Source: an uncultured Mollicutes bacterium (GTDB lineage Bacteria > Bacillota_I > Bacilli_A > ML615J-28 > CAG-313). Taken from it: a stretch of 64,000 nt of DNA. The DNA is taken from assembly GCA_900538885.1 (NCBI GenBank), contig UQAI01000001.1:25862-89861 (forward strand), in the 5' to 3' direction. This document shows positions 19,359-60,740 of this stretch, in pieces; the stretch's first letter is position 1; every line of letters starts with the position of its first letter. Position numbers and translations under genes: made by a program. The notes beneath the pieces were generated by a model that did not search any database, was not told the origin of the DNA, and was given only the letters and a program-made list of their open reading frames with translations.

Positions 19359-21188
19359 TTATGCTTTCCTTACATTCTTTAAGAAGCCGTATCTACCTTT
19401 GTTTTCTTTTTGAGTGAACTTGTAGATAACAACATCATCGTTAATTTCTAATTCAGGCAATTCGCTGTATTTTGTGTTTTCAATTATAACGATCTGGTCT
19501 GCTGTTTCAAGATTTATTAAATAATCAAAGAATCCTTTTCTAACGTTATCTGAATCCTCATCTTTATCTTCAGGAACTGATAATCCCTTAAGTGGTGAAT
19601 CTAAGAACCAGAAGCAGCCTTTGTTGGCACTTTTTTCTTCTATGTACTTCCTTAAAAGAAGAATAAGCATGGAGTTGGTGAACGCTTTATATCCTTTACC
19701 ACGTCTGATCTTATTCTTATTGTTAACTATTAAATCTAACTTGGTTTCAGTAAAGTCAATAGTACTGATATTTGGGTATTTAACGTCAGTAAAGATTTGA
19801 ACACCGTTATCAATTACATATTGACCTATGATTGAGAATAGAATTTTCTTTGCTTCAAATTTTAGTTTAGGTACATCATCACCTTTTTGGTATTTCTTTA
19901 AGTCTTCTTCAAGATCAACGTCATTTGCTCCTAGTTCATCAATCGCAGACTTAAGTCGAATATACTCTTCATAACTTTGAATTTTTTTCGCAAGTTCTGT
20001 TCTCTTAGGAGTAAGGACTTCATTGATTTTTGTTTTGTTGATTTCTATTGTTTCTTTATAGACAGCAATTAGATCCCCATCATCATCCAATGTATCTTTT
20101 AGCATTGCTGATGTCTCATCTAGTTCATTAAGATTGTTAACAACATTTCTTAGTTCGACTTTTGCAGCTTCGATATAAGAAGTAGGGTTTTTTGGAGTCA
20201 TTTCATGGTCACAGTAAGGGCATTTAGATTTTGTTGTCTTGTGGCCTATAGAGACTTCATTATTAACGATAAATGTTAATCTATTAATTTCCTTTTGATA
20301 GTCACTTTTTAATTCTTCATATTTAGAGAATATTAATTCATTTTTTTGTTGTTTCTTTTGAAGAGTCATTAAGTTAAATGATGTAGTGGTATTTTCAGAT
20401 GTTAAGCGTTCAATCTCATCGTTTAACTTTATAAGACTCTCATTTAGTTCTTGAATAACAGTTTCTAATGAAGCTAGGTCAATGCCTGATTGCTTTAGTT
20501 TATCTTCTAAAACTTCCTTCTTTTTAGACATAGCTATTCTATGTTCTGAAATGTAGGCGATTACTGCATTTCTTTTTGCTTTTTTGATTTCGTCAGATTC
20601 ATCTTTTTTTAGATAGTCTTCTAGCGTATTTCCAGTAAGGAAATATATTAATGCAGCAAGATATGTGGTCTCTCCATTTTGTTGAAGAAGTACGGATTTA
20701 GGCTTGTCAGCTTTATCTTCATCAATTAGGAATGTTTTTTTAATCGTTCTCCAAGAAAATCTTTCTGGATCGCCATCAATATTAGAAGGAATCTTAAGGT
20801 CATCCTTTAATCCTAATATCTTAAGCATCAATTTATCTATCGTTTTATTATTTTTTTTACCTTCCTTAAGAACATATTCGCCGCTTTCAATTTCAGGATT
20901 GTCACAAGAAACTGTGGTTTTAGAAGTGCCTTGTACTCTGGTTAGTGTGATGTCACCGTATTGAGTTTCAATTATTAGGGTGATGGTATCAAACCCATCT
21001 GACTCATCGAATGGAGCATGATCGTCATCGTTTTTAGCACCAAGTACATAATCAACGCATTTATAAATACAGGATTTACCAGTATCAGAAGGTCCAGCGA
21101 TAATGGTTAGTTTATTTCCGAATTCAATTTCTGATGGTTCAGCATTTGGTCCGGTAGCAATAAGCTTTTTAAGTTTAATAAAACCCAT
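19359..21188 (-). CDS. Rad50/SMC-like ABC ATPase with central coiled coil and CxxC zinc-hook (LmuB / ABC-3C ATPase-like)
   Basis: Walker A GPSDTGKS at N-terminus, ~250-aa heptad-rich coiled coil with CPYC at its midpoint, C-terminal Walker B/D-loop FWFLDSPLKGLS. Confidence 0.6.
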   Translation of the reverse strand: MGFIKLKKLIATGPNAEPSEIEFGNKLTIIAGPSDTGKSCIYKCVDYVLGAKNDDDHAPFDESDGFDTITLIIETQYGDITLTRVQGTSKTTVSCDNPEIESGEYVLKEGKKNNKTIDKLMLKILGLKDDLKIPSNIDGDPERFSWRTIKKTFLIDEDKADKPKSVLLQQNGETTYLAALIYFLTGNTLEDYLKKDESDEIKKAKRNAVIAYISEHRIAMSKKKEVLEDKLKQSGIDLASLETVIQELNESLIKLNDEIERLTSENTTTSFNLMTLQKKQQKNELIFSKYEELKSDYQKEINRLTFIVNNEVSIGHKTTKSKCPYCDHEMTPKNPTSYIEAAKVELRNVVNNLNELDETSAMLKDTLDDDGDLIAVYKETIEINKTKINEVLTPKRTELAKKIQSYEEYIRLKSAIDELGANDVDLEEDLKKYQKGDDVPKLKFEAKKILFSIIGQYVIDNGVQIFTDVKYPNISTIDFTETKLDLIVNNKNKIRRGKGYKAFTNSMLILLLRKYIEEKSANKGCFWFLDSPLKGLSVPEDKDEDSDNVRKGFFDYLINLETADQIVIIENTKYSELPELEINDDVVIYKFTQKENKGRYGFLKNVRKA

Positions 21189-21190
21189 AA

Positions 21191-21628
21191 TTATTTCTTA
21201 ACTCCTTTCGTTCTATCTTTTAATTTTTGTATCGTAATAGGCTTCATTTCATCTATGATGTTAGAAGCGAATTTTTTATATTCTATAGAGTAATCATCGT
21301 TCATTTCTGACACATATGCCTTACCAGAATCGGTAATTGCGTATATAAAACCTCTATCTGGATTGTTCGTTACAGTAGCAAGACCTCTGAATAATAGTTC
21401 TTTTAGCGAGTTCTTTATAAGCTTGCGCTGTATTGTGAACTCGTTAAGTGGAAATGAGCAGACACCGTTTAAGTTTGATTCACCAAATCCATAATGTTCA
21501 GCATATATGGCAAAGAAGTCCAGACGCGCTATTTCATCTTCGTTTAGATAACTTTGTTTATCTAAAATCATAAGAAGGCGCATAGAAACTTCAAATTCAG
21601 TATTAAAAAGCTTTGTCATTATAGCCAC
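21191..21628 (-). CDS. small alpha-helical middle component (LmuC-like) of the three-gene ATPase system
   Basis: 145 aa, overlaps upstream gene by 10 nt and sits 2 nt from ATPase gene; size and position match the middle component of ABC three-component systems. Confidence 0.4.
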   Translation of the reverse strand: MAIMTKLFNTEFEVSMRLLMILDKQSYLNEDEIARLDFFAIYAEHYGFGESNLNGVCSFPLNEFTIQRKLIKNSLKELLFRGLATVTNNPDRGFIYAITDSGKAYVSEMNDDYSIEYKKFASNIIDEMKPITIQKLKDRTKGVKK

Positions 21629-22581
21629 CTTACCTTTCCGTCATTAACAAGCATGTGGACCATGCCCATTTTCTCTTCAGTTCCTACCATACCATTGCCA
21701 GCAGTAGTGAAATAACTTTTTGAAAAGGTAATAACCATCACTTTATCCATTGTCTTATTTAATTTTTCATAAGCATCAGGAACCATTGAATTTGTATAAA
21801 GTCTTATTGCTTTATAAATCTCGTCTTTCATAGATGAAAATTCCTGTTCACCATCGTAGAAGAAATTTCTAACTTGTCTTAGCACCGTTTCAGCACTATA
21901 AAAGGCTTCACGATGTATTTGTAATTCCATTTGATAAACTGGATGACCATCCAAATCACCTATCGATGATATTGATTCACCAGTCTTTTGCGAGTAAACA
22001 GATAATAGTGCAGTTACATATTCACTTTCCATATCGTCGGGATTATCTGGGACAGTAAGTGCTGGTGGTAGAGTGTATTCAGTTCCACCAATTCTAACTT
22101 TATTGCCTGGAAGGAACACAGCTTTTTTAATAGATGTTTTTCTATTCTTCTCTGAACGCTCTTGAAGTAAATCTGCAAAGACATTAGCTAATTCTTCAGG
22201 TAAGTCAATACCTGCAAGAGTGACTCCTTTCTTAGCAAAGTTATCAATAAGTAAGCCTATGGCTTCATCAGTCAATTCAGCTGCATCATATACATCTTGA
22301 AAGTACTCTGATGTTATTTTACTTTTTAAATATCTGGCATCCTTAATTGGCATGTCGGTGTCATTTGTTTCATTAAGCAATTTTTCACAGTAGTTTTCAG
22401 ACTTCATTGTTATGTCATTAAGAATTTTATTATCGATTAATGAAATATCTGTAAACCAAGTTATTACATCTTGGTAAATAAGACGTGCACTTAATCTATG
22501 TGTTTCAGGATCGACTTGTATTTGGCTGGCAAATGCATTCTTAATTAAGTTTATAAACTCGTATATTTTCATTATTATCAC
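21619..22581 (-). CDS. first gene of the three-gene operon; candidate sensor/effector (LmuA-like position) with no recognisable catalytic motif
   Basis: 320 aa, translationally coupled to the next gene; no nuclease/TIR/Sir2/protease signature visible by eye. Confidence 0.4.
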   Translation of the reverse strand: MIIMKIYEFINLIKNAFASQIQVDPETHRLSARLIYQDVITWFTDISLIDNKILNDITMKSENYCEKLLNETNDTDMPIKDARYLKSKITSEYFQDVYDAAELTDEAIGLLIDNFAKKGVTLAGIDLPEELANVFADLLQERSEKNRKTSIKKAVFLPGNKVRIGGTEYTLPPALTVPDNPDDMESEYVTALLSVYSQKTGESISSIGDLDGHPVYQMELQIHREAFYSAETVLRQVRNFFYDGEQEFSSMKDEIYKAIRLYTNSMVPDAYEKLNKTMDKVMVITFSKSYFTTAGNGMVGTEEKMGMVHMLVNDGKVRWL

Positions 22582-31307: not shown

Positions 31308-31448
31308 GGGTAGGGGAGTCAAAATCTCTACAACTAAAAATAAGAAGACCGAGCCTGGGGTTTCGTGTGCAAAAATTGGAGTTCAAACGGGGTAATAGCC
31401 AAATGAACTCTTTTTAATTATTCAAAATTGAAAAAGGAGGATGATGTA

Positions 31449-31994
31449 ATGGCAAAAGATGGAACGATGCGTGGTGGTCCTAGACCAAATACAGGGCCAA
31501 AAAAGAAAGCCTTAGCTGATAAATTGCTCGAAGGAAAAGCAGAACTAGACAATGGCGCTGTGGTACTTCCTGAGCCAGTCGAAATTGAAGGTGTGGATAT
31601 GCCACCAATCAAGGACTTTTTAAAAGCAAAACAGAAAAACGGAAAAGATATGTGCGCTGAGGAAGTTTATAAAAGTACATACCTTTGGTTAAAAAAGAGA
31701 CATTGCGAAAAGCTGGTATCAACTCAGCTGCTAGAACAATATGCGATGTCAGTTTCTCGTTGGGTTCAATGTGAAGAAGCAATATCAGAATTTGGATTTT
31801 TAGCAAAGCATCCTACAACTGGAAATGCCATGCAAAGTCCATACGTGGCGATGAGCCAAAATTATATGAAACAGGTCAATCAGGTCTGGTTTCAAATTTA
31901 TCAAGTTGTGAAGGATAACTGCTCTTCTGATATAAGCGGTGCTAATCCTCAAGATGACTTGATGGAAAGATTGCTACAAGCAAGAAAGAGGTAA
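31449..31994 (+). CDS. phage terminase small subunit (P27-family-like)
   Basis: basic N-terminus GGPRPNTGPKKK, ~180 aa, upstream of the large terminase; start at ATG 31449 behind AAGGAGGA RBS. Confidence 0.6.
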   Translation: MAKDGTMRGGPRPNTGPKKKALADKLLEGKAELDNGAVVLPEPVEIEGVDMPPIKDFLKAKQKNGKDMCAEEVYKSTYLWLKKRHCEKLVSTQLLEQYAMSVSRWVQCEEAISEFGFLAKHPTTGNAMQSPYVAMSQNYMKQVNQVWFQIYQVVKDNCSSDISGANPQDDLMERLLQARKR

Positions 31995-32000: not shown

Positions 32001-32783
32001 ATGTTTGAAAAAGTAAATCCATGTCACCCAGATAAGGTGGCTGATAGAATTGCTGGTGCTTTAGTCGACTTAGCATACAAGCAAGAAGAAAACCCAAGAA
32101 TTGCAGTTGAAGTTTTAATTGGTCATGGCAAGTGTCATATCATTGCAGAAACTTCCGCATTCCTTGATATAAATGATATTTCAAAAGCGGTTCATAGAAT
32201 TGCTGGAGATATTCAAGTTGACTGTGTAATTGTGCCTCAAGATAGACACTTATCTGATAACCAAGAGGGCGCAATTAGATGTGGTGATAATGGTATCTTC
32301 AAAGGAGTACCATTAACAAAAGAACAAAAAGAACTAACACAAATTGCACATAAAATATTTGCTGCTTATTCTTGTGATGGAAAATATATCTTAAATGGCG
32401 ATAGGTTAATCATCTGCCAAAGTAATGCTACAACTGAAGAATTAAAGAAAGAGTATCCAAATTCAGAGATTAATCCATTAGGTTATTGGACAGGAGGAAC
32501 TGATGTCGATACTGGTGCAACCAATAGAAAACTAGGTTCTGATATGGCTGATTCAGTAACTGGTGGTGGACTTCATGGAAAAGATCTATCCAAAGCAGAT
32601 GTCAGTGTAAATATCTACGCTTGGTTAAAAGCTCAAGAGACAGGGGTTCCAGTTGAACTTTGCTGTGCTATTGGTGATGAGTACATTGACAATAGGCCAT
32701 ATGAAGAAATCGTAGCTATTGCACGTGAGTTTATCTTTGACTTAGGAGGATTTGAAAAATTCGCTGAATGGGGGTTGGTATAA
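32001..32783 (+). CDS. minimised S-adenosylmethionine synthetase (MetK) homologue, 260 aa
   Basis: N-terminal CHPDKVADRIAGALVD (MetK GHPDKIADQISDAVLD), GDNGIF (MetK GDQGLMFGY), GGGLHGKDLSKADVS (MetK GGGAFSGKDPSKVDRS); about 120 aa shorter than bacterial MetK. Confidence 0.6.
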   Translation: MFEKVNPCHPDKVADRIAGALVDLAYKQEENPRIAVEVLIGHGKCHIIAETSAFLDINDISKAVHRIAGDIQVDCVIVPQDRHLSDNQEGAIRCGDNGIFKGVPLTKEQKELTQIAHKIFAAYSCDGKYILNGDRLIICQSNATTEELKKEYPNSEINPLGYWTGGTDVDTGATNRKLGSDMADSVTGGGLHGKDLSKADVSVNIYAWLKAQETGVPVELCCAIGDEYIDNRPYEEIVAIAREFIFDLGGFEKFAEWGLV

Positions 32784-34072
32784 TGAAGACTACAACTGAA
32801 ATGACTTTGATTTCTATTGATAAGCTCATCCCTTATATAAACAATGCACGCACACATAGTCCTGAGCAAATAACAAAACTAAGGTCATCTCTTCGTGAGT
32901 TTGGATTTGTAAATCCTGTATTAATTGATAGGAACTATAATATCATCGCTGGTCATGGAAGATATGAAGCTGCTAAAGCAGAAGGCTATAGTGAGGTTCC
33001 ATGTGTATATGTAGACCATTTATCTGAAGCTCAAAAGAAAGCATACATCATTGCTGATAACCGAATGGCAATGGATGCTGGATGGGATGAAGAATTATTA
33101 AAAGTTGAATTAGAGGCTCTCGAAGGAGAGTCTTTTGATTTATCTCTTACTGGTTTTGATGAAGACGAACTTGCAGATCTTTTTAAATCCGATGAAGCAC
33201 CTATTGAAGATGATGATTACGATTTAACTGAAGCATTAGAAAAGGCAGCATTCGTTGAAAGAGGCGATCGTTGGATAGTAGGAAGACACGTTCTTTATTG
33301 TGGTGATGCTACAAATAAAGATGATGTTGATAAATTAATGGATGGTAAAAGAGCAAACCTAGTTCTTACCGATCCACCCTACGGTGTTTCATTTAAGTCA
33401 AGTTCTGGCTTAACTATTAAAAATGACTCAATGAAGAATGATGAGTTCTACAACTTCTTAAAATCTGCCTTTGATAATATGGTGGCTCACTGTGAGAAAG
33501 GGGCTGCTGGATATGTATTCCACGCTGATACAGAAGGCTTGAACTTTAGAAAAGCATTCATTGATTCTGGTTTTCATCTTGCAGGATGTTGCATCTGGGT
33601 TAAAGATAGCTTGGTTTTAGGACGTTCAGATTATCAATGGCAACATGAACCTGTGCTTTATGGATTTTTACAAAACGGAAAACATAACTGGTATTCAGAT
33701 AGAAAACAAACAACTATCTGGAACTTCAAAAAGCCAAAGAGAAATGAAAATCATCCTACTTCAAAACCTCTAGACCTTTTATCTTATCCTCTTCAAAACA
33801 GCACAAGAGAGAATGCTATTGTTATTGATACATTTGGTGGTTCTGGTTCAACTCTTATGGCTTGCGAACTATCAAATAGAATCTGCTACACAATGGAACT
33901 TGATGAAAAGTACGCATCAGTAATCCTTAGACGTTACGTTGATAATGGAGGAGATCCTTCAGAAGTTTACTGTTTTAGAAATGGTGAAAAAGTAATGTAC
34001 GCTGATGTAGCTAAGGAAGTTGAAAAAAGAGATGGGAACCTTGAAGAAACACCATCAAATGACTTGATATAA
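32783..34072 (+). CDS. ParB-like nuclease domain fused to N6/N4 DNA methyltransferase (orphan phage methylase)
   Basis: N-terminal ParB/Srx GHGRYEAA region; methylase motif IV LTDPPYG and motif I FGGSGST. Confidence 0.8.
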   Translation: MKTTTEMTLISIDKLIPYINNARTHSPEQITKLRSSLREFGFVNPVLIDRNYNIIAGHGRYEAAKAEGYSEVPCVYVDHLSEAQKKAYIIADNRMAMDAGWDEELLKVELEALEGESFDLSLTGFDEDELADLFKSDEAPIEDDDYDLTEALEKAAFVERGDRWIVGRHVLYCGDATNKDDVDKLMDGKRANLVLTDPPYGVSFKSSSGLTIKNDSMKNDEFYNFLKSAFDNMVAHCEKGAAGYVFHADTEGLNFRKAFIDSGFHLAGCCIWVKDSLVLGRSDYQWQHEPVLYGFLQNGKHNWYSDRKQTTIWNFKKPKRNENHPTSKPLDLLSYPLQNSTRENAIVIDTFGGSGSTLMACELSNRICYTMELDEKYASVILRRYVDNGGDPSEVYCFRNGEKVMYADVAKEVEKRDGNLEETPSNDLI

Positions 34073-34120
34073 ATCGCCTTTAGAGTGATATATACATAGC
34101 ACAGAAGGAGGTTTATAAAT

Positions 34121-34330
34121 ATGACGAAAGTTGAATCATTAAGACTTGAACTTGAAAGAATTTGTAATGAAACTCAAACCAGATTATCTGGAATGCAAAA
34201 GCTAGTGGAGTACTACATCAGCTCACTTGGTTGGTCTGAAGAAAAAGCACTCCAATATGCACTTGCATTATTTCATAATGGCACAGTTACACAAATCAAA
34301 TTATTAGGAAAAGATGGTGAGGAACTATGA
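34121..34330 (+). CDS. hypothetical small protein
   Basis: 69 aa ORF, translationally coupled to the next ORF. Confidence 0.35.
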   Translation: MTKVESLRLELERICNETQTRLSGMQKLVEYYISSLGWSEEKALQYALALFHNGTVTQIKLLGKDGEEL

Positions 34331-34542
34331 GAAAAGCTGAACTTGAATCATTGAGAGTCCAATATCCAAAAGGTACTCGAGTAGAATTAGTGAAGATGGA
34401 TGATGTCCAAGCACCACCTGTTGGAACTAAAGGAACAGTAATTGGAGTTGATGACATTGGATCAATTATGGTTAATTGGGATAATGGAAGTTCACTCAAT
34501 GTTGTTTATGGTGAAGATGTTGTGAAGGTTCTAAAAGACTAG
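34327..34542 (+). CDS. hypothetical small protein (DUF4314-like)
   Basis: 71 aa beta-rich ORF. Confidence 0.35.
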   Translation: MRKAELESLRVQYPKGTRVELVKMDDVQAPPVGTKGTVIGVDDIGSIMVNWDNGSSLNVVYGEDVVKVLKD

Positions 34543-34669
34543 AGTTTATATATCAAAGATATATAAAAATAGTTAAAAAATATACACAAAATGACTTGCT
34601 ATTATGTCCTTTTAGAGTGATATATATACACGACGAAGGGAAGAAAAAACCTTCAAGGAGGACAAAGAA

Positions 34670-35629
34670 ATGAAGAACACAGAAAACCAAATCAACAATA
34701 TGAAACAACAAACCATCGGAGTAGAAATTGAAATGAATTCAATTACAAGACAAAAGGCAGCAAGATTAGTTGCTGAGCACTTCGGAACAACAGCCTGGAA
34801 CGCAGCAAGTGAATACGGATATTGCAGTTGGGCTTGCAAGGACCAACAAGGTAGAGTTTGGAAATTTCAAAAGGATGTATCAATTGCAGGACCAGACGAT
34901 GAAAAATGCGAACTTGTAACACCAATCCTTACTTACAGCGACATTGAAGATTTACAAGAGATTGTTAGAATCCTTAGAAAAGCAGGAGCAAAAAGCGATG
35001 CTTCAAGAATGTGTGGAGTTCACATTCACATTGGTGCAAAAGGACATACACCAAAAACAATGAGAAACCTTACAAACATTATGGCAAGCCACGAAGACCT
35101 TCTTGCAGAAGCCTTGGATTTAGATAGAAACAGAATTTCAAGATACTGCAGAACAGTTGATCCAAGATTCCTTAAGGAAGTCAACAAGAAGAAACCTCAA
35201 ACAATGAGCCAATTTGCAGACGTTTGGTACAAAAGCCAAGGCGAAGATTATGCAAGAAGCCACCATTACAATGGTTCAAGATACCACATGCTTAACTTCC
35301 ACGCTACCTTCACAAAAGGAACAATTGAATTCAGATTATTCCAATTTGATGAACCAAAGGATGGAAAAGCAAACGGACTTCACGCAGGACAACTTAAGAG
35401 CTACATTCAATTATGCTTAGCCCTTAGCCAACTTGCAAAGGATGCAAAAAGCGCATCAGCAAAACCTCAACAACATGAAAATCCAAAATACGCAATGAGA
35501 ACTTGGTTATTAAGATTAGGTTTCATTGGCGAGGAATTCAAGACAGCAAGAGACTTCTTAACAAGAAGACTTAGCGGTGACTGCAGTTTCAGAAGTGGGG
35601 TAAGACCTGCTTCTCAAGCAGCAATGTAG
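34670..35629 (+). CDS. amidoligase (glutamine-synthetase-like fold, Amidoligase_2 family)
   Basis: N-terminal IGVEIEM acidic strand and CGVHIHIG histidine motif characteristic of phage amidoligases. Confidence 0.55.
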   Translation: MKNTENQINNMKQQTIGVEIEMNSITRQKAARLVAEHFGTTAWNAASEYGYCSWACKDQQGRVWKFQKDVSIAGPDDEKCELVTPILTYSDIEDLQEIVRILRKAGAKSDASRMCGVHIHIGAKGHTPKTMRNLTNIMASHEDLLAEALDLDRNRISRYCRTVDPRFLKEVNKKKPQTMSQFADVWYKSQGEDYARSHHYNGSRYHMLNFHATFTKGTIEFRLFQFDEPKDGKANGLHAGQLKSYIQLCLALSQLAKDAKSASAKPQQHENPKYAMRTWLLRLGFIGEEFKTARDFLTRRLSGDCSFRSGVRPASQAAM

Positions 35630-35639
35630 GGAGGTGAGA

Positions 35640-36116
35640 ATGATGAGCAAATATTATTTAGCATATGGAAGTAACCTTAACATTAGACAAATGGCTTATA
35701 GATGCCCAACCGCCATTCCAGTAGGCATAGCAGTAATAAAGAACTATCGCTTGAAATTTAAAGGTAGCAAAACTGGTTCATACCTAACAATCGAAAAAGC
35801 AAAAGGGTATGAAGTTCCTGTAGCTGTATGGAAAGTTGAAGATGATGATGAACTTCATCTAGATTGCTATGAGGGTTATCCTACCTTTTACTACAAGAAG
35901 GAAATCGAGATAGATTTCATTAGCATCAAAAGAAAATTACCGCATCACGCTAAAGCATTTGTATACATAATGCATGAAGATAGAAAACTAGGAATACCAA
36001 CAAAGCGTTATATTGATGTTTGTTTAGAAGGATATAAAGCATTTGGTTTTAACCCAGTAAGATTATTTGAAGCCATTAATTTATCAAAGGAGGATGTCAA
36101 AAATGGAAACAACTAA
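35640..36116 (+). CDS. gamma-glutamyl cyclotransferase (GGCT/AIG2-like)
   Basis: YLAYGSNL N-terminal signature of GGCT/AIG2 proteins; GGGAGG RBS. Confidence 0.6.
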   Translation: MMSKYYLAYGSNLNIRQMAYRCPTAIPVGIAVIKNYRLKFKGSKTGSYLTIEKAKGYEVPVAVWKVEDDDELHLDCYEGYPTFYYKKEIEIDFISIKRKLPHHAKAFVYIMHEDRKLGIPTKRYIDVCLEGYKAFGFNPVRLFEAINLSKEDVKNGNN

Positions 36117-36291
36117 GATTTGTCCTAAATGTGGAAAAACTTATCGAGGACACCCTGCAATATCAAGGGTAGATAACGAAACGCCAATATGCCCAGAATG
36201 CGGAACAAGAGAGGCTCTTGAAGGACTAGGAATACCGCCTGAGGAAATTGAAAATATCATTCATACAATTCCAAAAGTTGAAGATAAATAA
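36103..36291 (+). CDS. small zinc-ribbon protein (two CxxC pairs)
   Basis: CPKCGK...CPECG; AAGGAGG RBS 8 nt upstream of ATG 36103. Confidence 0.4.
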   Translation: METTKICPKCGKTYRGHPAISRVDNETPICPECGTREALEGLGIPPEEIENIIHTIPKVEDK

Positions 36292-36344
36292 AATGTTGAA
36301 GTCGGCTACGGTCGGCTTTTTCTTATGACAAGGAGGAGGAATTT

Positions 36345-37946
36345 GTGAGAAAACTAAAAAAATATGTTCCAACAAAGTTCAAAGCAAAAGACTCCACTTA
36401 CGATAAAGAAGCAGCTGATTTTGCAGTGAACTTCATTGAATGTTTATGTCATACAAAAGGAACGTGGGCTGGTGAGCCTTTTGAATTAATCGACTGGCAA
36501 GAACAAATAATAAGAGATCTCTTTGGAATTCTAAAACCAAATGGATATAGACAATTCAATACTGCTTATATTGAGATTCCAAAGAAACAAGGTAAGTCAG
36601 AACTTGCTGCAGCAGTAGCTTTACTCCTTACCTGTGGTGATGGTGAGGAAAGAGCTGAAGTTTATGGCTGTGCAGCCGATAGACAACAAGCATCAATCGT
36701 ATTTGAAGTTGCAGCGGATATGATAAGGATGTGTCCAGCTCTTAATAAAAGATGCAAAATACTAGCTGCAACAAAGAGAATAGTGTATTTACCTACAAAT
36801 AGTTTTTATCAGGTTTTGTCAGCTGAAGCATACTCGAAACATGGATTTAATATTCATGGTGTTGTCTTTGATGAGCTTCACACTCAACCAAATAGAAAAT
36901 TATTTGATGTTATGACTAAAGGTTCAGGCGACGCACGTATGCAACCTTTATATTTTTTAATAACAACTGCAGGAACTGATACTAAATCAATATGCTATGA
37001 AACACACCAAAAGGCAAAAGATATCATTGAAGGTAGAAAAAAGGACCCGACTTTCTATCCAGTAATATATGGAGCAGAGGTTGATGATGATTGGACTGAT
37101 CCTAAGGTTTGGAAGAAGGCAAATCCTAGTCTAGGAATAACAGTAGGTATTGATAAAGTTAAAGCTGCATGTGAGTCGGCAAAACAGAATCCAGCAGAAG
37201 AGAATTCATTCAGACAGCTTCGTCTAAACCAATGGGTAAAGCAAGCAGTCAGGTGGATGCCTATGGAAAAATGGGATGCTTGCTGCTTTGATTTTAATCC
37301 AGATGATTTAAAAGGTAGAGTTTGTTATGGCGGATTAGACTTATCATCAACAACCGATATTACAGCCTTTGTCTTAGTCTTTCCACCGACTGAAGAAGAT
37401 GAGCATTATTATGTCTTACCTTATTTCTGGATACCTGAGGATAATATGGATTTGAGAGTTGCAAAAGACCATGTTCCTTATGACTTATGGAATACACAAG
37501 GTTTCATTGAAACAACTGAAGGAAACGTAATTCATTATGCTTATATCGAACATTTCATTGAAGAATTAGGTCTTAAGTACAACATTAAAGAGATAGCTTT
37601 CGATAGATGGGGTGCTACAATGCTCGTTCAAAATCTAGAAGGTTTAGGATTTACTGTTGTTCCATTCGGTCAGGGCTTCAAAGATATGAGTCCACCAACG
37701 AAGGAACTAATGAATTTAGTTTTATCAAAAGAACTAAGACATAATGGTCAACCAGTCTTAAGGTGGATGATGGACAATGTGTGTGTAAGAACTGATCCTG
37801 CAGGAAATATCAAAATGGACAAGTCGAAGTCCACAGAAAAAATCGATGGTGCTGTGGCAACAGTTATGGCTCTAGATAGAGCAATAAGAAATAAAAATGG
37901 GACTTCTGATTCGGTATACGATTCAAGAGGTCTTTTATTTATCTAG
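36345..37946 (+). CDS. phage terminase large subunit
   Basis: 533 aa; ATPase Walker A/B (VFDELH) and C-terminal RNaseH-like nuclease; followed by the portal gene. Confidence 0.9.
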   Translation: MRKLKKYVPTKFKAKDSTYDKEAADFAVNFIECLCHTKGTWAGEPFELIDWQEQIIRDLFGILKPNGYRQFNTAYIEIPKKQGKSELAAAVALLLTCGDGEERAEVYGCAADRQQASIVFEVAADMIRMCPALNKRCKILAATKRIVYLPTNSFYQVLSAEAYSKHGFNIHGVVFDELHTQPNRKLFDVMTKGSGDARMQPLYFLITTAGTDTKSICYETHQKAKDIIEGRKKDPTFYPVIYGAEVDDDWTDPKVWKKANPSLGITVGIDKVKAACESAKQNPAEENSFRQLRLNQWVKQAVRWMPMEKWDACCFDFNPDDLKGRVCYGGLDLSSTTDITAFVLVFPPTEEDEHYYVLPYFWIPEDNMDLRVAKDHVPYDLWNTQGFIETTEGNVIHYAYIEHFIEELGLKYNIKEIAFDRWGATMLVQNLEGLGFTVVPFGQGFKDMSPPTKELMNLVLSKELRHNGQPVLRWMMDNVCVRTDPAGNIKMDKSKSTEKIDGAVATVMALDRAIRNKNGTSDSVYDSRGLLFI

Positions 37947-53432: not shown

Positions 53433-53927
53433 ATGGTCAATATAACAGATGTAAGACAGATTCTTCAATTCGCAATAGATGCGGAGATTAAAGTCTTTCT
53501 TGATGGCGGCTGGGGTGTAGATGCACTTCTTGGATATCAGTCAAGAAGCCATAACGATATTGATATTTTTGTAGAAAAGAAAGATTATCAGAATTTTATA
53601 GAGATAATACAAGCTAATGGATTTTATGAAATTAAGATGGAATATACAACATTGAATCATACTGTATGGGAAGATGCGAAAAACAGAATTATTGATTTGC
53701 ATTGTTTTGAATATACAGGCAAAGGTGAAATTCTTTATGAGGGGGATTGCTTTCCGTTAGAAATTTTTTCAGGTAAAGGAAAAATTGAGGAGATAGAGGT
53801 TTCCTGTATTGAACCATATAGTCAAGTAATGTTCCATCTCGGATACGAGTTTGATGAAAATGATGTACATGATGTGAAGTTATTGTGTGAGACATTTCAT
53901 ATCGAAGTTCCAAATGAGTATAGATAA
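53433..53927 (+). CDS. Lnu(A)/ANT(2'')-family nucleotidyltransferase (candidate lincosamide/aminoglycoside nucleotidyltransferase)
   Basis: FLDGGWGVDALLGYQSRSHNDIDIF matches Lnu(A) WLDGGWGVDVLTGKQQREHRDIDIDF and AadB GGGWAIDARLG...HDDIDL; C-terminal FHLGYEFDENDVHDVKLL matches Lnu(A) FHSGYDLTETDHFDIKNL; 164 aa. Confidence 0.6.
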   Translation: MVNITDVRQILQFAIDAEIKVFLDGGWGVDALLGYQSRSHNDIDIFVEKKDYQNFIEIIQANGFYEIKMEYTTLNHTVWEDAKNRIIDLHCFEYTGKGEILYEGDCFPLEIFSGKGKIEEIEVSCIEPYSQVMFHLGYEFDENDVHDVKLLCETFHIEVPNEYR

Positions 53928-54105: not shown

Positions 54106-56784
54106 ATGAAAAAAATTGGTAGATTTATTGTTTTATCTATTTTTATGATGTCAGTTATCTTTATGACTGGTTGTAGCAACAACACTCCTTATATTGGAGA
54201 AAATGGAAACTGGTGGGTTGGCGAGTCTGACACTGGGGTTCCGGCACAAGGTGAAAAAGGTGATAGTGGCGAAAAAGGTGACAAAGGAGATAAGGGTGAC
54301 AAAGGAGATAAAGGTGACACTGGGGATTCAGTAACTGTTGTTTCAGTTAAAAAAACAGGAACTGAAGAAAACGTCGATACATATACAATCACTTTCTCTG
54401 ATGGAAATACTTCAACATTTACTGTTACAAATGGTGCTGATGGCGAATCAGTTAATGTTGAATCAGTAACTAAGATTGGTTCTGATGGATTAGTTGATAC
54501 TTATAAAATAATGTTTTCTGATGGTACTGAATATACTTTTACAGTAACTAACGGAGCTGATGGCGAGTGCATAACAATTGAATCAATTGAAAAAACTGGT
54601 TCAGATGAATTAGTTGATACTTACACAATTACATTATCTGACGGAAACAAATTCACATTTACCGTTACTAATGGAAAAGACGGATTAACTCCTTATATTG
54701 GTCCTAATGGCAACTGGTGGATTGGCGATGAAGATACTGGCGAATTCGCTTCTTATAACTATGAAACTAGAGATATTACTGATGGATTAACATTTACACC
54801 TATGACCATAAATGGAAAAGGTGGTTTTGTTGTTACTGGTTTTGATCCTGTTGTTGCATACGGCAGTGAAATTTATAATCTTTTAGATAACTATCCAGAA
54901 CAATACGCGTCAACTTATGGAATTATTAATATTCCTGATTATTTAGGTACAACTCCTGTTATTGGAATCAAAGCTGAAATGTTTAAAAACGTTGATTATA
55001 TCGGCAAAGTTTCACTTTCAAGAAATACAGTTTATCTTGGAGATAATGTTTTTAATACTTGCTCAAATTTACAAGAAATTGATTTTAATGGAGCACCATT
55101 AGAAAAACTTCCAGACTATGCTTTTTATAAAACAAAACTTCAAAGCATTGATTTACCTGAAACTTTAGAAACTTTAGGTGCATATTCTCTTGCAAATACT
55201 AAATTAAAATCTATTGAATTACCAAATTCATTAACGAGATTAGAAAGTCATGCTTTATATGGAAATACTATAAAAGATATTGATATTAATAATGTTACTT
55301 ATTTTGCAGATTATTCATTATATGGAATTCATGGTAATCCTATTTATTTAACGAATGATGTTGAATATGTTGGTAGTTACGCTTTTGCTGGAACTTATGT
55401 TTATATCGAACAGGAAACAATCCCTACAACTTGGGAAAGCAATATTGCAGGTACTAGTACGTATTATGGTGGAATTGTTACTCCTAATTGTTTAATTAAT
55501 GATGAGTATATTTACTCTAAGAACGGAAATGAAATAACAGTATTAAATTATATAGGAACTGATAAACGAATTGAAATTCCTAGTTTAATTGATTCTCTAC
55601 CAGTTACAAAAATTGGATACGGTTTCAACTCTGTTAGTGAAATTGGACTTAATGTTTATGATAATATTTATACTGAAGAAAGTGGCGAAAACTATTTCAG
55701 TTATATGGTAAGAGCAGAACAAGTAGTAATTCCAAATTCAGTAAAAGCAATTGATTTAGGAGCATTCAATAATTTATTTACTACAATTTATATTCCTTCA
55801 AGCGTAGAAAAAATAAGCACTTATGCTTTAATCATTGACAATGATGACTTGTCATCAAACTTTATGATTTTTGAAGCTAATTCATATCCTACATTGATTA
55901 AAGGTTGGGTAGATGGCGAAAATGAAGGCGAAATTGATGGTGCACTATGGTTTGATGACGAAAACTATATTTGCTATTATCGCAATATCAAAAATACAAA
56001 ATGGGAAGATGTTTATTTTAATGAAGAAACAAATTCATACTATATTAAAGATTTATTTGGTTATACTTTAATTGCTTATATGAACCATGAAGTTGGTAGT
56101 AAAATTGTAATCGAATCAACTTTCAATAACGAAACTGTTCATACTATTAGAAAAGGTGCTGTTTATGGATTCTTTAATCCTAAATCCTTAATCATAGAAG
56201 ATGGAATTAAAAAGATTCAAAAGTATGCGTTTATGATGTGTGCAGACTTCAATTATGCTTATATTCCTAGCAGTGTAACAACAATTAATGCCTATGGATT
56301 TGCTGATGTTTGTTATAGATTCTATACAAATCACACATCAAAACCAGATGAATGGGATACACAATGGGCTGGTTCTTCATCTAGTTATACAATTACTTAT
56401 AAAACTGAATTAGGTGAGATTCCTACAATATCTTTTGATGGAAAGTATGAATATGCAGTTCTTGATGATGGAACAGTAAGTCTAGTTAAGTATTTGGGTT
56501 CTTCATCAACATCTACAATTAAAGTTCCAAGAACAATTGATGGATATACAGTAACTGAAGTAAAGAGCAATTGTTATTCAATTTCATACTCTTCTACAGT
56601 TTACATTTATATTCCTAAATCAATTCTTGTGTTAGAAGAAAATGCATTTTATCGCTCTTACACTTATTATACAACTTATGTTTATTTTGAAGCTGAATCT
56701 GCTTTACCTGGCTATCACTCAAAATTCACCAATACATCTTCTAGCTATTTAACTAAATACTGGAATAGAAGTATCGGATACTAA
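54106..56784 (+). CDS. surface lipoprotein with collagen-like GDK repeats, three tandem ~45-aa repeats and a BspA/internalin-type leucine-rich-repeat domain
   Basis: signal peptide plus lipobox [30 protein letters not shown], repeated TYTITFSDGN.TFTVTNGADGE units, C-terminal LRR periodicity. Confidence 0.7.
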   Translation: MKKIGRFIVLSIFMMSVIFMTGCSNNTPYIGENGNWWVGESDTGVPAQGEKGDSGEKGDKGDKGDKGDKGDTGDSVTVVSVKKTGTEENVDTYTITFSDGNTSTFTVTNGADGESVNVESVTKIGSDGLVDTYKIMFSDGTEYTFTVTNGADGECITIESIEKTGSDELVDTYTITLSDGNKFTFTVTNGKDGLTPYIGPNGNWWIGDEDTGEFASYNYETRDITDGLTFTPMTINGKGGFVVTGFDPVVAYGSEIYNLLDNYPEQYASTYGIINIPDYLGTTPVIGIKAEMFKNVDYIGKVSLSRNTVYLGDNVFNTCSNLQEIDFNGAPLEKLPDYAFYKTKLQSIDLPETLETLGAYSLANTKLKSIELPNSLTRLESHALYGNTIKDIDINNVTYFADYSLYGIHGNPIYLTNDVEYVGSYAFAGTYVYIEQETIPTTWESNIAGTSTYYGGIVTPNCLINDEYIYSKNGNEITVLNYIGTDKRIEIPSLIDSLPVTKIGYGFNSVSEIGLNVYDNIYTEESGENYFSYMVRAEQVVIPNSVKAIDLGAFNNLFTTIYIPSSVEKISTYALIIDNDDLSSNFMIFEANSYPTLIKGWVDGENEGEIDGALWFDDENYICYYRNIKNTKWEDVYFNEETNSYYIKDLFGYTLIAYMNHEVGSKIVIESTFNNETVHTIRKGAVYGFFNPKSLIIEDGIKKIQKYAFMMCADFNYAYIPSSVTTINAYGFADVCYRFYTNHTSKPDEWDTQWAGSSSSYTITYKTELGEIPTISFDGKYEYAVLDDGTVSLVKYLGSSSTSTIKVPRTIDGYTVTEVKSNCYSISYSSTVYIYIPKSILVLEENAFYRSYTYYTTYVYFEAESALPGYHSKFTNTSSSYLTKYWNRSIGY
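54376..54705 (+). repeat. three tandem ~135-bp intragenic repeats in the lipoprotein gene
   Basis: near-identical protein units; DNA periodicity visible. Confidence 0.7.
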
Positions 56785-57635: not shown

Positions 57636-57851
57636 ATGACTCCTTTGGAAAGATATATGGCTTCAGTTAAGGTTCTTGAGAAGATGGTTAAGGAAGGCTT
57701 GATTGATGAAAAAGAGTACATGAAAGTCGAATCGTTCCTAGCTAAAAAACACTGTATCAAACCTGACAGCATTTACCGTTCAAATCACTTGCTATTTCAG
57801 AGAAATAGAGTGATAGATAGTAATGCAAAAAAGGAGGCAAATAATGGATAG
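57636..57851 (+). CDS. small protein with SHOCT-like C-terminal motif
   Basis: 72 aa; GLIDEKEYMKVESFLAKK resembles the SHOCT motif. Confidence 0.3.
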   Translation: MTPLERYMASVKVLEKMVKEGLIDEKEYMKVESFLAKKHCIKPDSIYRSNHLLFQRNRVIDSNAKKEANNG

Positions 57852-59187
57852 AAACATAATCAAAATTGATGCAGAAAAGCAATTGAAATCCAGAATTAGG
57901 GTTTGCGCTTATGCTCGTGTTTCAAGAGATAAGGATGCGATGTTTCAATCGCTGTCAGCTCAGGTTAGCCATTACAACAAGATGATTAACAGCAACCCAG
58001 AATGGCAGTTCAAGGGAGTCTATGCGGATTATGCATTTTCAGGAACAAAGGAAGATAGACCGGAATTCCAAAAGATGCTGGAAGCCTGCAAAGCTGGTGA
58101 GATTGATTTAATTATCACAAAATCAATTTCAAGGTTCGCCAGAAACACAGAAACAGTGCTTAAAGTAGTTAGGGAATTAAAGGCTAGGGATGTAGATGTT
58201 TACTTCGAGGAACAAAAGATCCATACGATATCATCGGATGGTGAGTTCATGCTTAGCGTGCTTGCTGCTTATTACCAAGAGGAAGCCAGGTCGGTTTCAG
58301 AAAATATGAAATGGCGAATTAAGAAAGATTTCAGTCAAGGCATCATGTGGGGTGGCAAAGATAACTACGGTTACAAATATGACATCGATAAGAAGACGTT
58401 CATTGTAGTTCCTGAAGAGGCTGCTGTAGTTAAGCGAATCTTCGAACTATACATTGCTGGAGCAGGATTTCAAAAGATATCCAGCATCCTGAACTTGGAA
58501 GGCATAAAACCAATGACTGCAAATGAGTGGAGCAAGAATAACGTGACAGCCGTCATAAGCAACTCAAACTACACAGGCGACCTAATCCTTCAGAAGACAT
58601 ACCGCAAGGATTACCTATCAAAGAAAAAATGCAAGAACAACGGTGAGCTTCAGAAATACCTTGTCGAAGAGAACCATGAGCCAATAATCACTAAAGAGAT
58701 GTTTGAAAAGGCACAGAAAATCAGAAATGAGAGAATTATGAAGTATGACATTAAAACCAGAAAGGCAAAGAATAACTACCCTTTCACAGGCATTCTTAGA
58801 TGCGGATGCTGCGGTGGAGCATATCATCACAAGACGACAAGGTACAACTTAATCTGGATTTGCAGAACCTACAACACCAAAGGGAAAGGCTTCTGCTCAA
58901 GAAGCAAGCAAATAGATGAACGCAAGCTTTATGATGCGATTAACCAATACTTCGGTTGGGATAAGTTCAAACAAGATAAGTTCCTAGAGAAGGTTGAGAA
59001 GATTATAGCTAATCCAGGGAATGAGCTAGAGATTCACCTTAAGGATGGAACGGTTGACAAAATCTATTGGAATGACAGAAGCCGAAGCGAGGCATGGACT
59101 GATGATATGAAATCTAAAGCTAGAGCTAAGGCATTTAAACAAAACGAATTAAGAGGAGGGAACAACAGATGGCAAAAGTCAAAGTAA
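57844..59187 (+). CDS. large serine recombinase (CcrA-like size)
   Basis: N-terminal resolvase domain with catalytic-serine region VCAYARVSRD, recombinase domain, C-terminal Cys-rich zinc ribbon; about 448 aa. Confidence 0.8.
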   Translation: MDRNIIKIDAEKQLKSRIRVCAYARVSRDKDAMFQSLSAQVSHYNKMINSNPEWQFKGVYADYAFSGTKEDRPEFQKMLEACKAGEIDLIITKSISRFARNTETVLKVVRELKARDVDVYFEEQKIHTISSDGEFMLSVLAAYYQEEARSVSENMKWRIKKDFSQGIMWGGKDNYGYKYDIDKKTFIVVPEEAAVVKRIFELYIAGAGFQKISSILNLEGIKPMTANEWSKNNVTAVISNSNYTGDLILQKTYRKDYLSKKKCKNNGELQKYLVEENHEPIITKEMFEKAQKIRNERIMKYDIKTRKAKNNYPFTGILRCGCCGGAYHHKTTRYNLIWICRTYNTKGKGFCSRSKQIDERKLYDAINQYFGWDKFKQDKFLEKVEKIIANPGNELEIHLKDGTVDKIYWNDRSRSEAWTDDMKSKARAKAFKQNELRGGNNRWQKSK

Positions 59188-60740
59188 TACCACAAACGAT
59201 AAATCCGATGACAATGTCAGTTATTGGCTCAACTCAAAAAAGAAAAGTTGCTGCTTATGCCAGAGTAAGCACCGAGAATGAAGAACAACAATCATCATAT
59301 GAAGCACAGGTCAAATACTACACTGAGCATATAGCAACCAGACCAGACTGGGAATTCGTGAAGGTGTATTCTGATGAAGGTATATCAGGAACCAACACAA
59401 AAAGAAGAGTTGGCTTTAGATCGATGATACAGGATGCAGTTGATGGGAAGATTGACCTAATTCTAACCAAATCAATATCGAGATTTGCCAGAAACACCTT
59501 AGACAGCATATCCTACATTAGACAATTGAAAGCTGCTGGAACTGAGGTCTATTTTGAAAAGGAAAATTTATGGACATTCGATTCAAAGTCTGAAATGGTG
59601 CTGTCTATGCTTAGTGCTATTGCTCAAGAGGAAAGCCGAAGCATCTCAGAGAACGTTAAGATGGGCAAGAGATGGCAAATGAAGGAAGGAAAGGTTACAA
59701 TTCCTTGTAAGGCGTTCTTAGGATACCAAAATATAGATGGTAAGATTACGATTGATAAGGATGAGGCAATCATCGTTAGAAGAATTTACTCAATGTTCTT
59801 AAAGGACGGTATGACAAGAAAGGCTATAGCAGATACTCTGAAGGCTGAGGGAATTCCTACTCCATCAAAGAAAGGCTGCAACTGGACCGTCAACAACATT
59901 CAGTCGATACTCACCAACGAGAAGTACAAAGGCGATGCATTGCTACAAAAGGTCTATTGCGACGATTATCTTGAGCACAAGGTAAAGAAGAACAACGGTG
60001 TGTTACCTCAATATTACGTTGAGAATTCGCATCCTGGAATCATCAACAAAGAAGAATGGACAATGGTTCAGGAGGAGCTTAAGAGAAGAGAAGGCATCAG
60101 ATACTCATACCAAACAAGCAATCCTTATTTAGCAAAGCTTAGATGCTCGGAATGCGGACACTTCTTCGGAATCAAGGTATGGCATTCCAACTCAATCCAC
60201 AGAAAAGAGGTATTGCAATGCAACGGCAAATACAAATGCGGATGCAAGTCACCTAATCTTAGCCAAGATGAAGTCAACAGGAAGTTCATAGAAGCCTACA
60301 ACCAAGTGATGGACAACAAGAAAGGCTTGATAGAAGACACCAAAGAGGTCATAGAAATGCTAACCTCAACTGAGAAAATAGACGCGAAGGTACAAGCATT
60401 AACGAATGAGATGGAGGAGGTTCAGCTATTGGTAGAGAACCTAATTCACGACAATGCCAGAAGGAACCAAGACCAAGAAGAGTACGAAAGACACTATCAA
60501 GAGTTGGTAAGTCAATTCAATGCAGCTAAAGCTAAAATGAAATCCTTGCTAGAGGAAAAACAATCCAAACTAGACAGGATTGAAATACTTAATGCTTTCA
60601 TTGTTTCCTTAGAAGATAAAGAAGCCGTCATAGATGAATTCTCAACTGATCTATGGAACTTAATGATTCAAGATGCATTAGTCAGCGAGGATGGAACAAT
60701 TAAGTTTGTATTCAAGAATGGAACAGAAATTACAATGTAA
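59169..60740 (+). CDS. large serine recombinase (CcrB-like size), overlapping the upstream recombinase gene by 19 nt
   Basis: AAYARVSTENEEQQSS catalytic region, recombinase domain, zinc ribbon CSECG...C, C-terminal coiled coil; 523 aa. Confidence 0.8.
   Translation: MAKVKVIPQTINPMTMSVIGSTQKRKVAAYARVSTENEEQQSSYEAQVKYYTEHIATRPDWEFVKVYSDEGISGTNTKRRVGFRSMIQDAVDGKIDLILTKSISRFARNTLDSISYIRQLKAAGTEVYFEKENLWTFDSKSEMVLSMLSAIAQEESRSISENVKMGKRWQMKEGKVTIPCKAFLGYQNIDGKITIDKDEAIIVRRIYSMFLKDGMTRKAIADTLKAEGIPTPSKKGCNWTVNNIQSILTNEKYKGDALLQKVYCDDYLEHKVKKNNGVLPQYYVENSHPGIINKEEWTMVQEELKRREGIRYSYQTSNPYLAKLRCSECGHFFGIKVWHSNSIHRKEVLQCNGKYKCGCKSPNLSQDEVNRKFIEAYNQVMDNKKGLIEDTKEVIEMLTSTEKIDAKVQALTNEMEEVQLLVENLIHDNARRNQDQEEYERHYQELVSQFNAAKAKMKSLLEEKQSKLDRIEILNAFIVSLEDKEAVIDEFSTDLWNLMIQDALVSEDGTIKFVFKNGTEITM

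Follow-up and report, generated by a model that had tools for sequence, protein, structure and literature searches.

We examined a stretch of 64,000 nucleotides (the window) from an uncultured Mollicutes bacterium (assembly GCA_900538885.1, contig UQAI01000001.1) and, within it, a group of three genes encoding an amidoligase, a γ-glutamyl cyclotransferase (GGCT), and a small zinc-ribbon protein, which lies just 5′ of a phage terminase gene. The best genome match to the window was a metagenome-assembled genome (MAG) of the Anaeroplasmatales, at 97%. A prophage occupied approximately 23 to 61 kb of the window, with a GC content of 0.36 to 0.42, compared to approximately 0.30 in the surrounding host DNA. 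Its replication genes (encoding DUF2800, AAA_24, a SNF2-type helicase, a PriCT_2/AAA_25 primase-helicase, RusA, and DUF1492) were followed on the 3′ side by an HK97-type packaging and head module. The gene order on the plus strand was HNH, the small terminase gene (TerS), a MetK-like gene, a DNA methylase gene with ParB_N and N6_N4 methylase domains, orf69, a DUF4314 gene, the Amidoligase_2 gene, the GGCT/AIG2 gene, the zinc-ribbon gene, and the large terminase gene (TerL), and the interval from TerS to TerL was 4350 bp. All the open reading frames (ORFs) that a preliminary description of this DNA had named were found, on the plus strand and with the motifs it had quoted.

The ORF at 34670, proposed in that description to encode an amidoligase, was confirmed as such by profile searches (E values in Table 1). 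Its product scored 187.8 bits against the Pfam profile PF12224 (cutoff 22), covering profile positions 2 to 244 of 245. The motifs IGVEIEM and CGVHIHIG were located at residues 16 to 22 and 115 to 122, respectively, and E19, E21, E81, H118, H120, R155, E220, and R222 (the ExE...H.H...ExR set) were at least 90% conserved among 73 amidoligase homologs with identities down to 34%; D69 was also among the conserved residues. At the level of residue patterns, this set resembles the metal and phosphate ligands of γ-glutamylcysteine synthetase (γ-GCS), ExE...E...H...ExR, and by analogy the conserved residues may bind metal and ATP. The family is large: clustering at 90% identity yields at least 8000 clusters, and at 50% there are 4515 representatives.

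No solved structure was significantly matched by sequence, either with the single amidoligase sequence or with the 73-sequence profile. An AlphaFold2 (AF2) model built on the 73-sequence alignment had a predicted local distance difference test score (pLDDT) of 95.3, and the only significant solved neighbors of this model in Foldseek were the γ-glutamylcysteine ligase (γ-GCL) domain of GshF (3ln7, E 1.4e-5) and YbdK (1r8g, E 5.7e-5), with glutamine synthetases (GS) and Escherichia coli γ-GCS ranked next. The modeled protein is thus predicted to have a GS/γ-GCL-type fold and to act as an ATP-dependent carboxylate-amine ligase.

The next ORF, which had been described as a GGCT/AIG2 protein because of its YLAYGSNL signature, indeed contained this signature, scored 42.8 bits against Pfam GGACT (cutoff 22.8), and matched phrog_2520. 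When aligned to human GGCT (2pn7), with the catalytic column marked by the E98Q mutant entry 3cry, the residues Y11-G12-S13-N14 matched and Glu80 corresponded to the catalytic Glu98. Y11, G12, S13, N14, D77, E80, and G81 were at least 95% conserved among 130 homologs. The ORF opens with a GTG, and from the context of the ribosome-binding site (RBS), the likely true start is the ATG at 35640, behind a GGAGG RBS. The third gene overlaps the 3′ end of the GGCT gene; its ORF opens with a TTG, while the RBS context points to the ATG at 36103 as the likely true start. The zinc-ribbon assignment proposed for it also held, based on the CxxC...CxxC arrangement and the match to phrog_2945.

To what extent these genes belong together was assessed in two sets of relatives. 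The first consisted of 155 loci selected by their amidoligase, with 81 distinct loci having enough flank, and the GGCT gene was directly 3′ of the amidoligase gene in 77 of these; DUF4314 neighbored it in 68 loci, and the zinc ribbon did so in 46. Since this set was biased by the route of collection, a second set was made, selected by TerL only (50 contigs, TerL identity of 82 to 98%, at least 5 kb upstream). Here, 19 contigs had amidoligase together with GGCT and the other 31 had neither, with no exception, and the zinc ribbon accompanied the pair in 18 of the 19 contigs and was found in none of the 31 without it. This is the pattern of a three-gene block that would be gained and lost as a unit. 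The enzyme pair also recurs elsewhere. The unrelated Bacillus phage 031MP002 encodes a 24%-identical amidoligase 1.1 kb from a cyclotransferase of another subfamily (GGACT-like, YGTL), in an early region without methylase or terminase, and in LUZ24-like Pseudomonas phages the amidoligase and cyclotransferase domains are found within a larger module. Given this recurrence and the joint presence and absence, we conclude that the pairing of the two enzymes is functional. It is a real phage pairing and, as had been stated, one noted before, with both genes labeled in PHROG; the homologs lie in phage contexts and not in those of cellular glutathione metabolism.

Table 1. Features of the prophage from TerS to TerL, with positions in the window
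Feature	Position	Strand	Evidence
TerS	31428-31994	+	Terminase_4; phrog_83, E 2e-30
Short MetK-like gene	32001-32783	+	Pfam and PHROG scans
ParB_N + N6_N4_Mtase DNA methylase	32768-34072	+	Pfam and PHROG scans
Promoter-like element, copy 1, AAATGACTTGATATA-N-CCTTTAGAGTGATATATAC	34055-34096	+	nhmmer, E 5e-11; motif search
orf69, first gene of cassette 1	34121-34330	+	No family match in Pfam and PHROG scans
DUF4314 protein, SH3-like β-barrel	34327-34542	+	Pfam, E 5e-32
AT-only inverted repeat, TTATATATC-AAA-GATATATAA	34546-34566		Sequence; between DUF4314 stop codon and promoter-like copy 2
Promoter-like element, copy 2	34585-34635	+	nhmmer, E 9e-14
Amidoligase_2 enzyme, 319 aa	34670-35629	+	Pfam, E 4e-55; phrog_2443, E 1.5e-112
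γ-Glutamyl cyclotransferase (GGCT/AIG2), neighbor of the ORF at 34670	ORF 35634-36116; likely start 35640	+	Pfam GGACT, E 9e-11; phrog_2520, E 4.7e-48
Small zinc-ribbon protein, CPKC...CPEC (CxxC...CxxC)	ORF 36067-36291; likely start 36103	+	phrog_2945, E 6e-21
Terminator-like hairpin and T-run	36298-36326	+	Consensus scan; between zinc-ribbon stop codon and TerL RBS
TerL	36345-37946	+	Pfam; 94% identical to TerL of Candidatus (Ca.) Heliusvirales phage PV036447

In many relatives, a second protein related to the amidoligase was encoded by an upstream gene. This protein, VRP ("virulence-related protein"), has 216 to 257 residues and carries the C-terminal helical subdomain of the amidoligase (approximately residues 255 to 310 of the latter). 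VRP matched phrog_2443 end to end and gave no match to Pfam Amidoligase_2. In the alignment, E19/E21, H118/H120, and the entire central block were lost, and the N-terminal β-α unit and the C-terminal helices (KYAxRxxLLRLGFIGxEFKxxR) were retained. Judged by the residues it has lost, VRP is a truncated, catalytically dead paralog of the amidoligase. It was present in 39 of the 50 TerL-selected contigs, often in place of amidoligase and GGCT, and VRP, the amidoligase, or both were found in 47; examples come from phages of Streptococcus and Erysipelothrix and from gut phages (L159:4584-5234, L160:4560-5243, L123:6509-7282, and L003:3527-4255). Streptococcus phage Javan102 and Erysipelothrix phage phi1605 have VRP and lack GGCT, and GGCT therefore tracks catalytic competence. 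Some noncatalytic property of the amidoligase fold appears to be useful by itself.

A few further observations concern these paralogs. Two-piece tblastn matches in relatives had the appearance of a group I intron or intein in the amidoligase, but the extra piece turned out to be the C-terminal domain of the separate upstream paralog, and an Rfam search of eight loci gave no hit. Amidoligase genes split by inserts of 3.5 to 5.7 kb were seen only in L145 (2385-6775), L147 (973-7582), and L148 (7633-12027), and Rfam detected no group II intron in the split gene of L148. A match of the 73-sequence profile, at amidoligase residues 3 to 57 (34676-34840), to the anti-CRISPR protein AcrIF9 (6w1x) was nonsignificant (E 0.17) and is probably due to chance; the matching stretch is the N-terminal β-α-β unit of the amidoligase, the same unit that VRP keeps. 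One locus (L073:8002-9369) has two consecutive GGCT paralogs after the amidoligase, along with a long VRP of 428 residues and three DNA methylases upstream.

The two genes between the methylase and the amidoligase, orf69 and the DUF4314 gene, showed a different distribution. While orf69 was found only in the closest relatives, DUF4314 was present in 46 of the 50 TerL-selected contigs, making it near-core in this lineage whether or not an amidoligase is encoded, and it also occurs in unrelated elements without amidoligase. DUF4314 had 19 invariant columns among homologs down to 51% identity, and its AF2 model (pLDDT 95.7) matched SH3-like, Tudor, and BirA C-terminal domains in Foldseek. Its near-core status, its presence in unrelated elements, and its generic SH3-like fold ruled it out as a dedicated partner or tag of the amidoligase, and we assigned orf69 and DUF4314 to a cassette of their own, outside the enzyme system. 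In some phages DUF4314 is fused to DUF5049 (L111:8400-8801 and L129:8033-8431), and in others the two are separate neighbors (L123:9216-9392 and L159:5438-5611), which suggests that they may work together.

These small genes matter for the idea that the ligase is a protein-tagging enzyme that, like the Pup ligase PafA, would link a small protein or a single amino acid to lysine residues in proteins of the host or the virion, with DUF4314, the zinc ribbon, or orf69 as the tag or adaptor. PafA and Dop are members of the carboxylate-amine ligase superfamily that also includes the amidoligase, the small ORFs are packed tightly with the ligase gene, the zinc ribbon covaries with the enzyme pair, and the C-terminal subdomain kept in VRP could be a binding surface. 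However, neither PafA nor Dop was among the top 50 Foldseek neighbors of the amidoligase. DUF4314 proteins vary at the C-terminus or continue there into a fused domain, and they thus have no Pup-like conserved terminal residue; the C-termini of the zinc-ribbon protein and orf69 differ between the window and locus L087, and DUF4314 is also present where no amidoligase is found. In addition, the need of the cyclotransferase for a free α-amine fits free glutamate and not a protein tag. We therefore regard protein tagging as distinctly unlikely.

The region singled out in the preliminary description (34121-36291) consists of two transcription-unit-like cassettes, the first with orf69 and DUF4314 and the second with amidoligase, GGCT, and zinc ribbon, and only the second behaves as a functional unit. 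A promoter-like element, sought by a loose motif pattern and an nhmmer profile, precedes both, and nhmmer found exactly these two copies in the window. Copy 1 overlaps the 3′ end of the methylase gene, approximately 25 nt 5′ of orf69. Copy 2 consists of a −35-like TTGCTA, 17 nt including TTTAGAGT, and then GATATATATAC, and is located approximately 35 to 45 nt 5′ of the amidoligase ATG. The 127-nt gap 5′ of the amidoligase was strongly conserved across loci whose amidoligases are 46 to 98% identical and whose GC contents differ widely. The consensus of the element is AACTTG(A/C)TAT, approximately 12 nt, and TTTAGAG(T/C)GA(T/A)TAT(A/G)TAC, after which come a leader rich in purines, a strong RBS, and the start codon ATG; its short form is AACTTGMTAT...TTTAGAGYGAWTATRTAC. 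Across 152 loci, nhmmer detected 308 copies, 298 of them co-oriented with the genes and preceding an ORF start, at a fixed distance to the start codon. The ORF that followed was the amidoligase (135 copies), orf69 (46), VRP (32), DUF7698 (20), Nmad4 (8), DUF7678 (6), or a different small ORF, of which there were more than 20. The element may mark a regulon specific to the phage or a border at which cassettes are exchanged.

On the 3′ side, the cassette is followed by a terminator-like hairpin with a T-run, and relatives have a hairpin and T-run at the equivalent position 5′ of TerL, with different stem sequences. Similarly, an inverted repeat of another sequence was found in the relatives, in a comparison of upstream regions, at the position equivalent to that of the AT-only inverted repeat of the window. 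The promoter-like and terminator-like signals can be read as a promoter and a terminator that delimit an autonomous unit, with the cassette being one of several that are interchangeable and have the same type of promoter. With a hairpin of this kind 5′ of TerL, transcription of TerL and the late genes might depend on read-through, antitermination, or another promoter. The 5′ leader of the amidoligase (34632-34669) and those of relatives, inspected by eye, contain a possible short hairpin just 5′ of the RBS, with stems that vary yet stay complementary (GAAGG/CCTTC, GGAAG/CTTCC, and AGGG/CCCT). A riboswitch or other known RNA in the conserved gap was rejected, as an Rfam scan of 34000-36500, judged by E value, found none.

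This layout resembles that of morons, said to have been defined by Juhala and Hendrix for lambdoid and HK97-like phages, and the cassette could accordingly be a prophage moron for defense or host manipulation. The two enzymes would then run a futile cycle (Glu + ATP to 5-oxoproline + ADP + inorganic phosphate) that drains ATP or glutamate, aborting superinfection or rerouting metabolism. The promoter-like and terminator-like signals, the placement between genes that are adjacent in relatives, and the presence or absence among close relatives agree with this, and the same futile cycle is known from human glutathione-synthetase deficiency. Nevertheless, a search of the defense models in PADLOC-DB 2.0 gave no match for the amidoligase or GGCT, nor for DUF4314, orf69, the MetK-like protein, VRP, Nmad4, DUF7698, or DUF7678, and the zinc ribbon had only a trivial match, to Cas12f (E 0.0012). 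Furthermore, no sensor or regulatory domain was found, and the enzyme pairing also occurs in virulent phages (in the early region of the Bacillus phage and in the LUZ24-like phages), where morons that protect a lysogen are not expected. The chances of this explanation therefore seem poor, similar to those of protein tagging.

The preliminary description had also regarded the genes between TerS and TerL as an unusual insertion splitting the two terminase genes. When the genes between TerS and TerL were surveyed, relatives were found to share the layout, and the notion of an unusual or private insertion was not borne out; such a gene order is normal for the very widespread temperate phages of Ca. 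Heliusvirales and related groups. TerL was 94% identical to that of the Anaeroplasmataceae phage NatCom_34063 (Ca. Heliusvirales), in which the gene order is the same, and Javan102 and phi1605 likewise have HNH-TerS-MetK-methylase-small genes-TerL. In sister branches (L123 and Blautia phage NatCom_24097), TerS is directly 5′ of TerL and the whole accessory block is 5′ of TerS; the two terminase genes are adjacent in L123 and also in L161. Judging from these gene orders, it is the position of TerS that shifts between lineages relative to a long-standing accessory island, and the phage of the window has no private insertion. Phages of Ca. Heliusvirales have been found in approximately 82% of sampled human guts, and 58.9% of their genomes carry an S-adenosylmethionine (SAM) synthetase (PMC11283538). 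The MetK-like protein of the window has 260 residues, in which Pfam finds the N-terminal SAM-synthetase domain only, and matches phrog_1569 (function unknown); the MetK at the equivalent position in phi1605 is full-length, with 398 residues.

The methylase and putative SAM synthetase genes next to the cassette had been described as compatible with a DNA or virion modification pathway or a counterdefense module, and a modification or counterdefense role is conceivable. In a scheme of DNA or nucleotide hypermodification, an aminated base would receive glutamate or a different amino acid from the ligase, to be trimmed by the cyclotransferase, and together with the methylases and the SAM synthetase this would shield the phage DNA from restriction. 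In line with this, the ParB-methylase gene was 5′ of the amidoligase in 53 of 55 loci with long flanks, some loci have three methylases, and a MetK-like gene adjoins. Cassettes with Nmad4 ("nucleotide modification associated domain 4") also occupy the same slot in relatives, and in viral metagenomes, genes with amidoligase domains are found together with clusters for thymidine hypermodification (PMC8989533). However, a Pfam scan of 29 prophage ORFs, with the structural-gene ORFs scanned in part, found no 5-hydroxymethyluracil (5-hmU) kinase, aGPT-Pplase, dUMP hydroxymethylase, or TET/JBP. Moreover, among the TerL-selected contigs the methylase stays (46 of 50, near-constant with or without amidoligase) whereas the amidoligase comes and goes (19 of 50), and the enzyme pair is found without methylase and SAM synthetase in Bacillus phage 031MP002 and the LUZ24-like phages. 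The proposed link between the pair and these genes is thereby weakened; their adjacency is best read as lineage synteny, and we consider hypermodification an unlikely function.

A different kind of evidence came from the hosts. The cultured, wall-less Acholeplasma equifetale ATCC 29724 contains the cassette intact, in the order orf69, DUF4314, an 82%-identical amidoligase, GGCT, zinc ribbon, and TerL, and further intact cassettes were found in MAGs of Anaeroplasmatales, Haloplasmataceae, and "Tenericutes." Since intact copies are carried by wall-less Mollicutes, a cell-wall target is unlikely for this form of the cassette. To our knowledge, modification of the cell wall is the only functional prediction in circulation for phage amidoligases, and these copies contradict it. 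Peptidoglycan modification as in the phiEco32/LUZ24-type amidoligase modules, for example to block superinfection, has been predicted in print for larger Amidoligase_2 and AIG2 phage modules (PMC11945000 and PMC11318856, both citing Iyer et al. 2009). In addition to the wall-less hosts, the gene content stands against this role here: neither the cassette nor its neighboring genes encode the ATP-grasp enzyme, COOH-NH2 ligase, or glutamine amidotransferase found in the larger module. We consider such a role highly improbable.

The close structural relatives of the amidoligase all activate the γ-carboxyl of glutamate, and GGCT-fold enzymes cyclize only a glutamyl group with a free α-amine. From these two properties, we derived a working model in which glutamate and an amine are converted to a γ-glutamyl amide and further to 5-oxoproline. 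The amidoligase, cyclotransferase, and zinc ribbon would form a self-contained accessory cassette, located in a variable gene island just 5′ of the terminase and late genes of a Heliusvirales-type temperate phage. In the first step, the ligase would join a carboxylate, most likely the γ-carboxyl of free l-glutamate, to an acceptor amine (Glu + R-NH2 + ATP to γ-Glu-NH-R), and in the second, the cyclotransferase would cut the γ-glutamyl-amine bond (γ-Glu-NH-R to 5-oxoproline + R-NH2). Acting together, the enzymes would make and break a γ-glutamyl mark, which amounts to turning glutamate into 5-oxoproline at the expense of ATP. The acceptor would be cytoplasmic and not peptidoglycan. We put the probability that the cassette makes and breaks such a mark on a cytoplasmic, nonpeptidoglycan target at roughly 0.5. 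The family and fold assignments, the intact catalytic signatures, and the strict co-inheritance of the enzymes are observed, as is the architecture of the cassette; that glutamate is the donor, which reaction comes first, when the genes are expressed, and all that concerns the acceptor are what we infer.

Several points weigh against this model. The likeness of the amidoligase to γ-glutamyl ligases is distant (TM of approximately 0.42), and glutamate as the donor is therefore not established. A pure make-and-break pair looks futile without a third step or a difference in timing, and neither was identified. Four lineages (L111, L114, L116, and L129) have an amidoligase and no detectable GGCT, and the 50 TerL-selected loci are phylogenetically related and not 50 independent trials, so that the co-occurrence counts overstate the number of independent events. 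Finally, the promoter and terminator are predictions from sequence, and the terminator-like sites in the region numbered 7 compared to 4.4 ± 2.1 expected after shuffling, which is not above expectation.

Going beyond the make-and-break model, the cassette could be a counterdefense or host-takeover device that places a γ-glutamyl group on an amine in the cytoplasm, for instance that of a host protein, polyamine, or immune signaling molecule. VRP, which takes the same slot in most relatives, would reach a similar effect by binding the same target without chemistry, and all the preterminase cassettes would form one regulon under a phage factor that recognizes the promoter-like element. This extended proposal is tentative, and we consider it rather unlikely. 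If the alternation between the enzyme and its dead paralog does reflect a shared target, it would help to point to that target.

Other features of the prophage and its borders lie away from the cassette. Two tandem large serine recombinase genes are located at the right end of the prophage (57823-60740), and just past this end a third one, containing DUF4368, is encoded on the opposite (minus) strand (62794-63927), which suggests nested or adjacent mobile elements. Just beyond the left end, on the minus strand (19359-22581), are ABC-3C-like genes, encoding a CTD6 protein (E 1e-29) beside a 609-residue AAA_23-like ATPase, a possible host defense locus. The late region carries as cargo genes for an aminoglycoside-2″-adenylyltransferase-like nucleotidyltransferase (53433-53927, E 6.5e-24) and a BspA-type leucine-rich-repeat protein of 892 residues (54106-56784); in phi1605, an annotated aminoglycoside nucleotidyltransferase gene is found between TerL and the portal gene.

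We know of no member of the amidoligase family with a known substrate or a solved structure, and a literature search found no experimental work on phage amidoligase/GGCT pairs or DUF4314. The pairing itself is already known, from Iyer et al. 2009 as cited by others, the PHROG labels, and the LUZ24 literature. New here are the boundaries of the cassette, its regulation-like signals, the strict co-inheritance, the alternating dead paralog, and the argument against a cell-wall role. The minimal three-gene form, with defined boundaries, is present in cultured or inducible systems (A. equifetale ATCC 29724, Terrisporobacter phage TPDSL_ph1, and prophages of C. clostridioforme LM41), and a 15-year-old computational prediction thus becomes directly testable. 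The cassette is therefore a tractable entry point to the old question of what amidoligases do.

Among the known systems, the closest are the phage neighborhoods of Amidoligase_2 (PF12224) and AIG2, reportedly described by Iyer, Abhiman, Burroughs, and Aravind in 2009 in Mol Biosyst 5:1636. The Pfam description of PF12224 refers to pairing with an AIG2/GGCT cyclotransferase in phages of Firmicutes; the family and the pairing are the same, and nothing essential differs in the cassette of the window. The LUZ24-like/phiEco32 module (COOH-NH2 ligase, Amidoligase_2, GATase, ATP-grasp, and AIG2) likewise has both enzymes in one phage cluster, whereas the cassette has ligase, cyclotransferase, and zinc ribbon only and belongs to temperate phages of Firmicutes and Mollicutes. 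As these hosts include wall-less ones, the cell-wall role assigned to the module does not transfer to the cassette. The γ-glutamyl cycle and its related enzymes (YbdK/GCS2, GshA/GshF γ-GCL, and glutamine synthetase, together with GGCT) follow a like logic, in which a ligase makes and a cyclotransferase breaks a γ-glutamyl amide. Compared to the solved γ-glutamyl ligases, however, the amidoligase has no detectable sequence similarity, is much smaller (319 residues), and has a distinct C-terminal helical subdomain, and unlike in the cycle, the enzymes are phage encoded and without a glutathione synthetase partner.

In putrescine catabolism (PuuA/PuuD) and butirosin biosynthesis (BtrJ/BtrG), an ATP-dependent ligase attaches a γ-glutamyl group to an amine, and this group is taken off at a later stage by a dedicated enzyme; BtrG is a GGCT-fold cyclotransferase, and BtrJ is an ATP-grasp and not a GS-fold enzyme. 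The make-then-remove logic is shared with the cassette, but for the intervening enzymes that act on the masked intermediate in these pathways no counterpart was identified in it. With morons, the cassette would have in common the promoter-like and terminator-like signals, the placement between genes that are adjacent in relatives, and the variable presence (19 of 50 contigs). It differs from them in its promoter-like element, which is not idiosyncratic but lineage-wide and common to many different cassettes.

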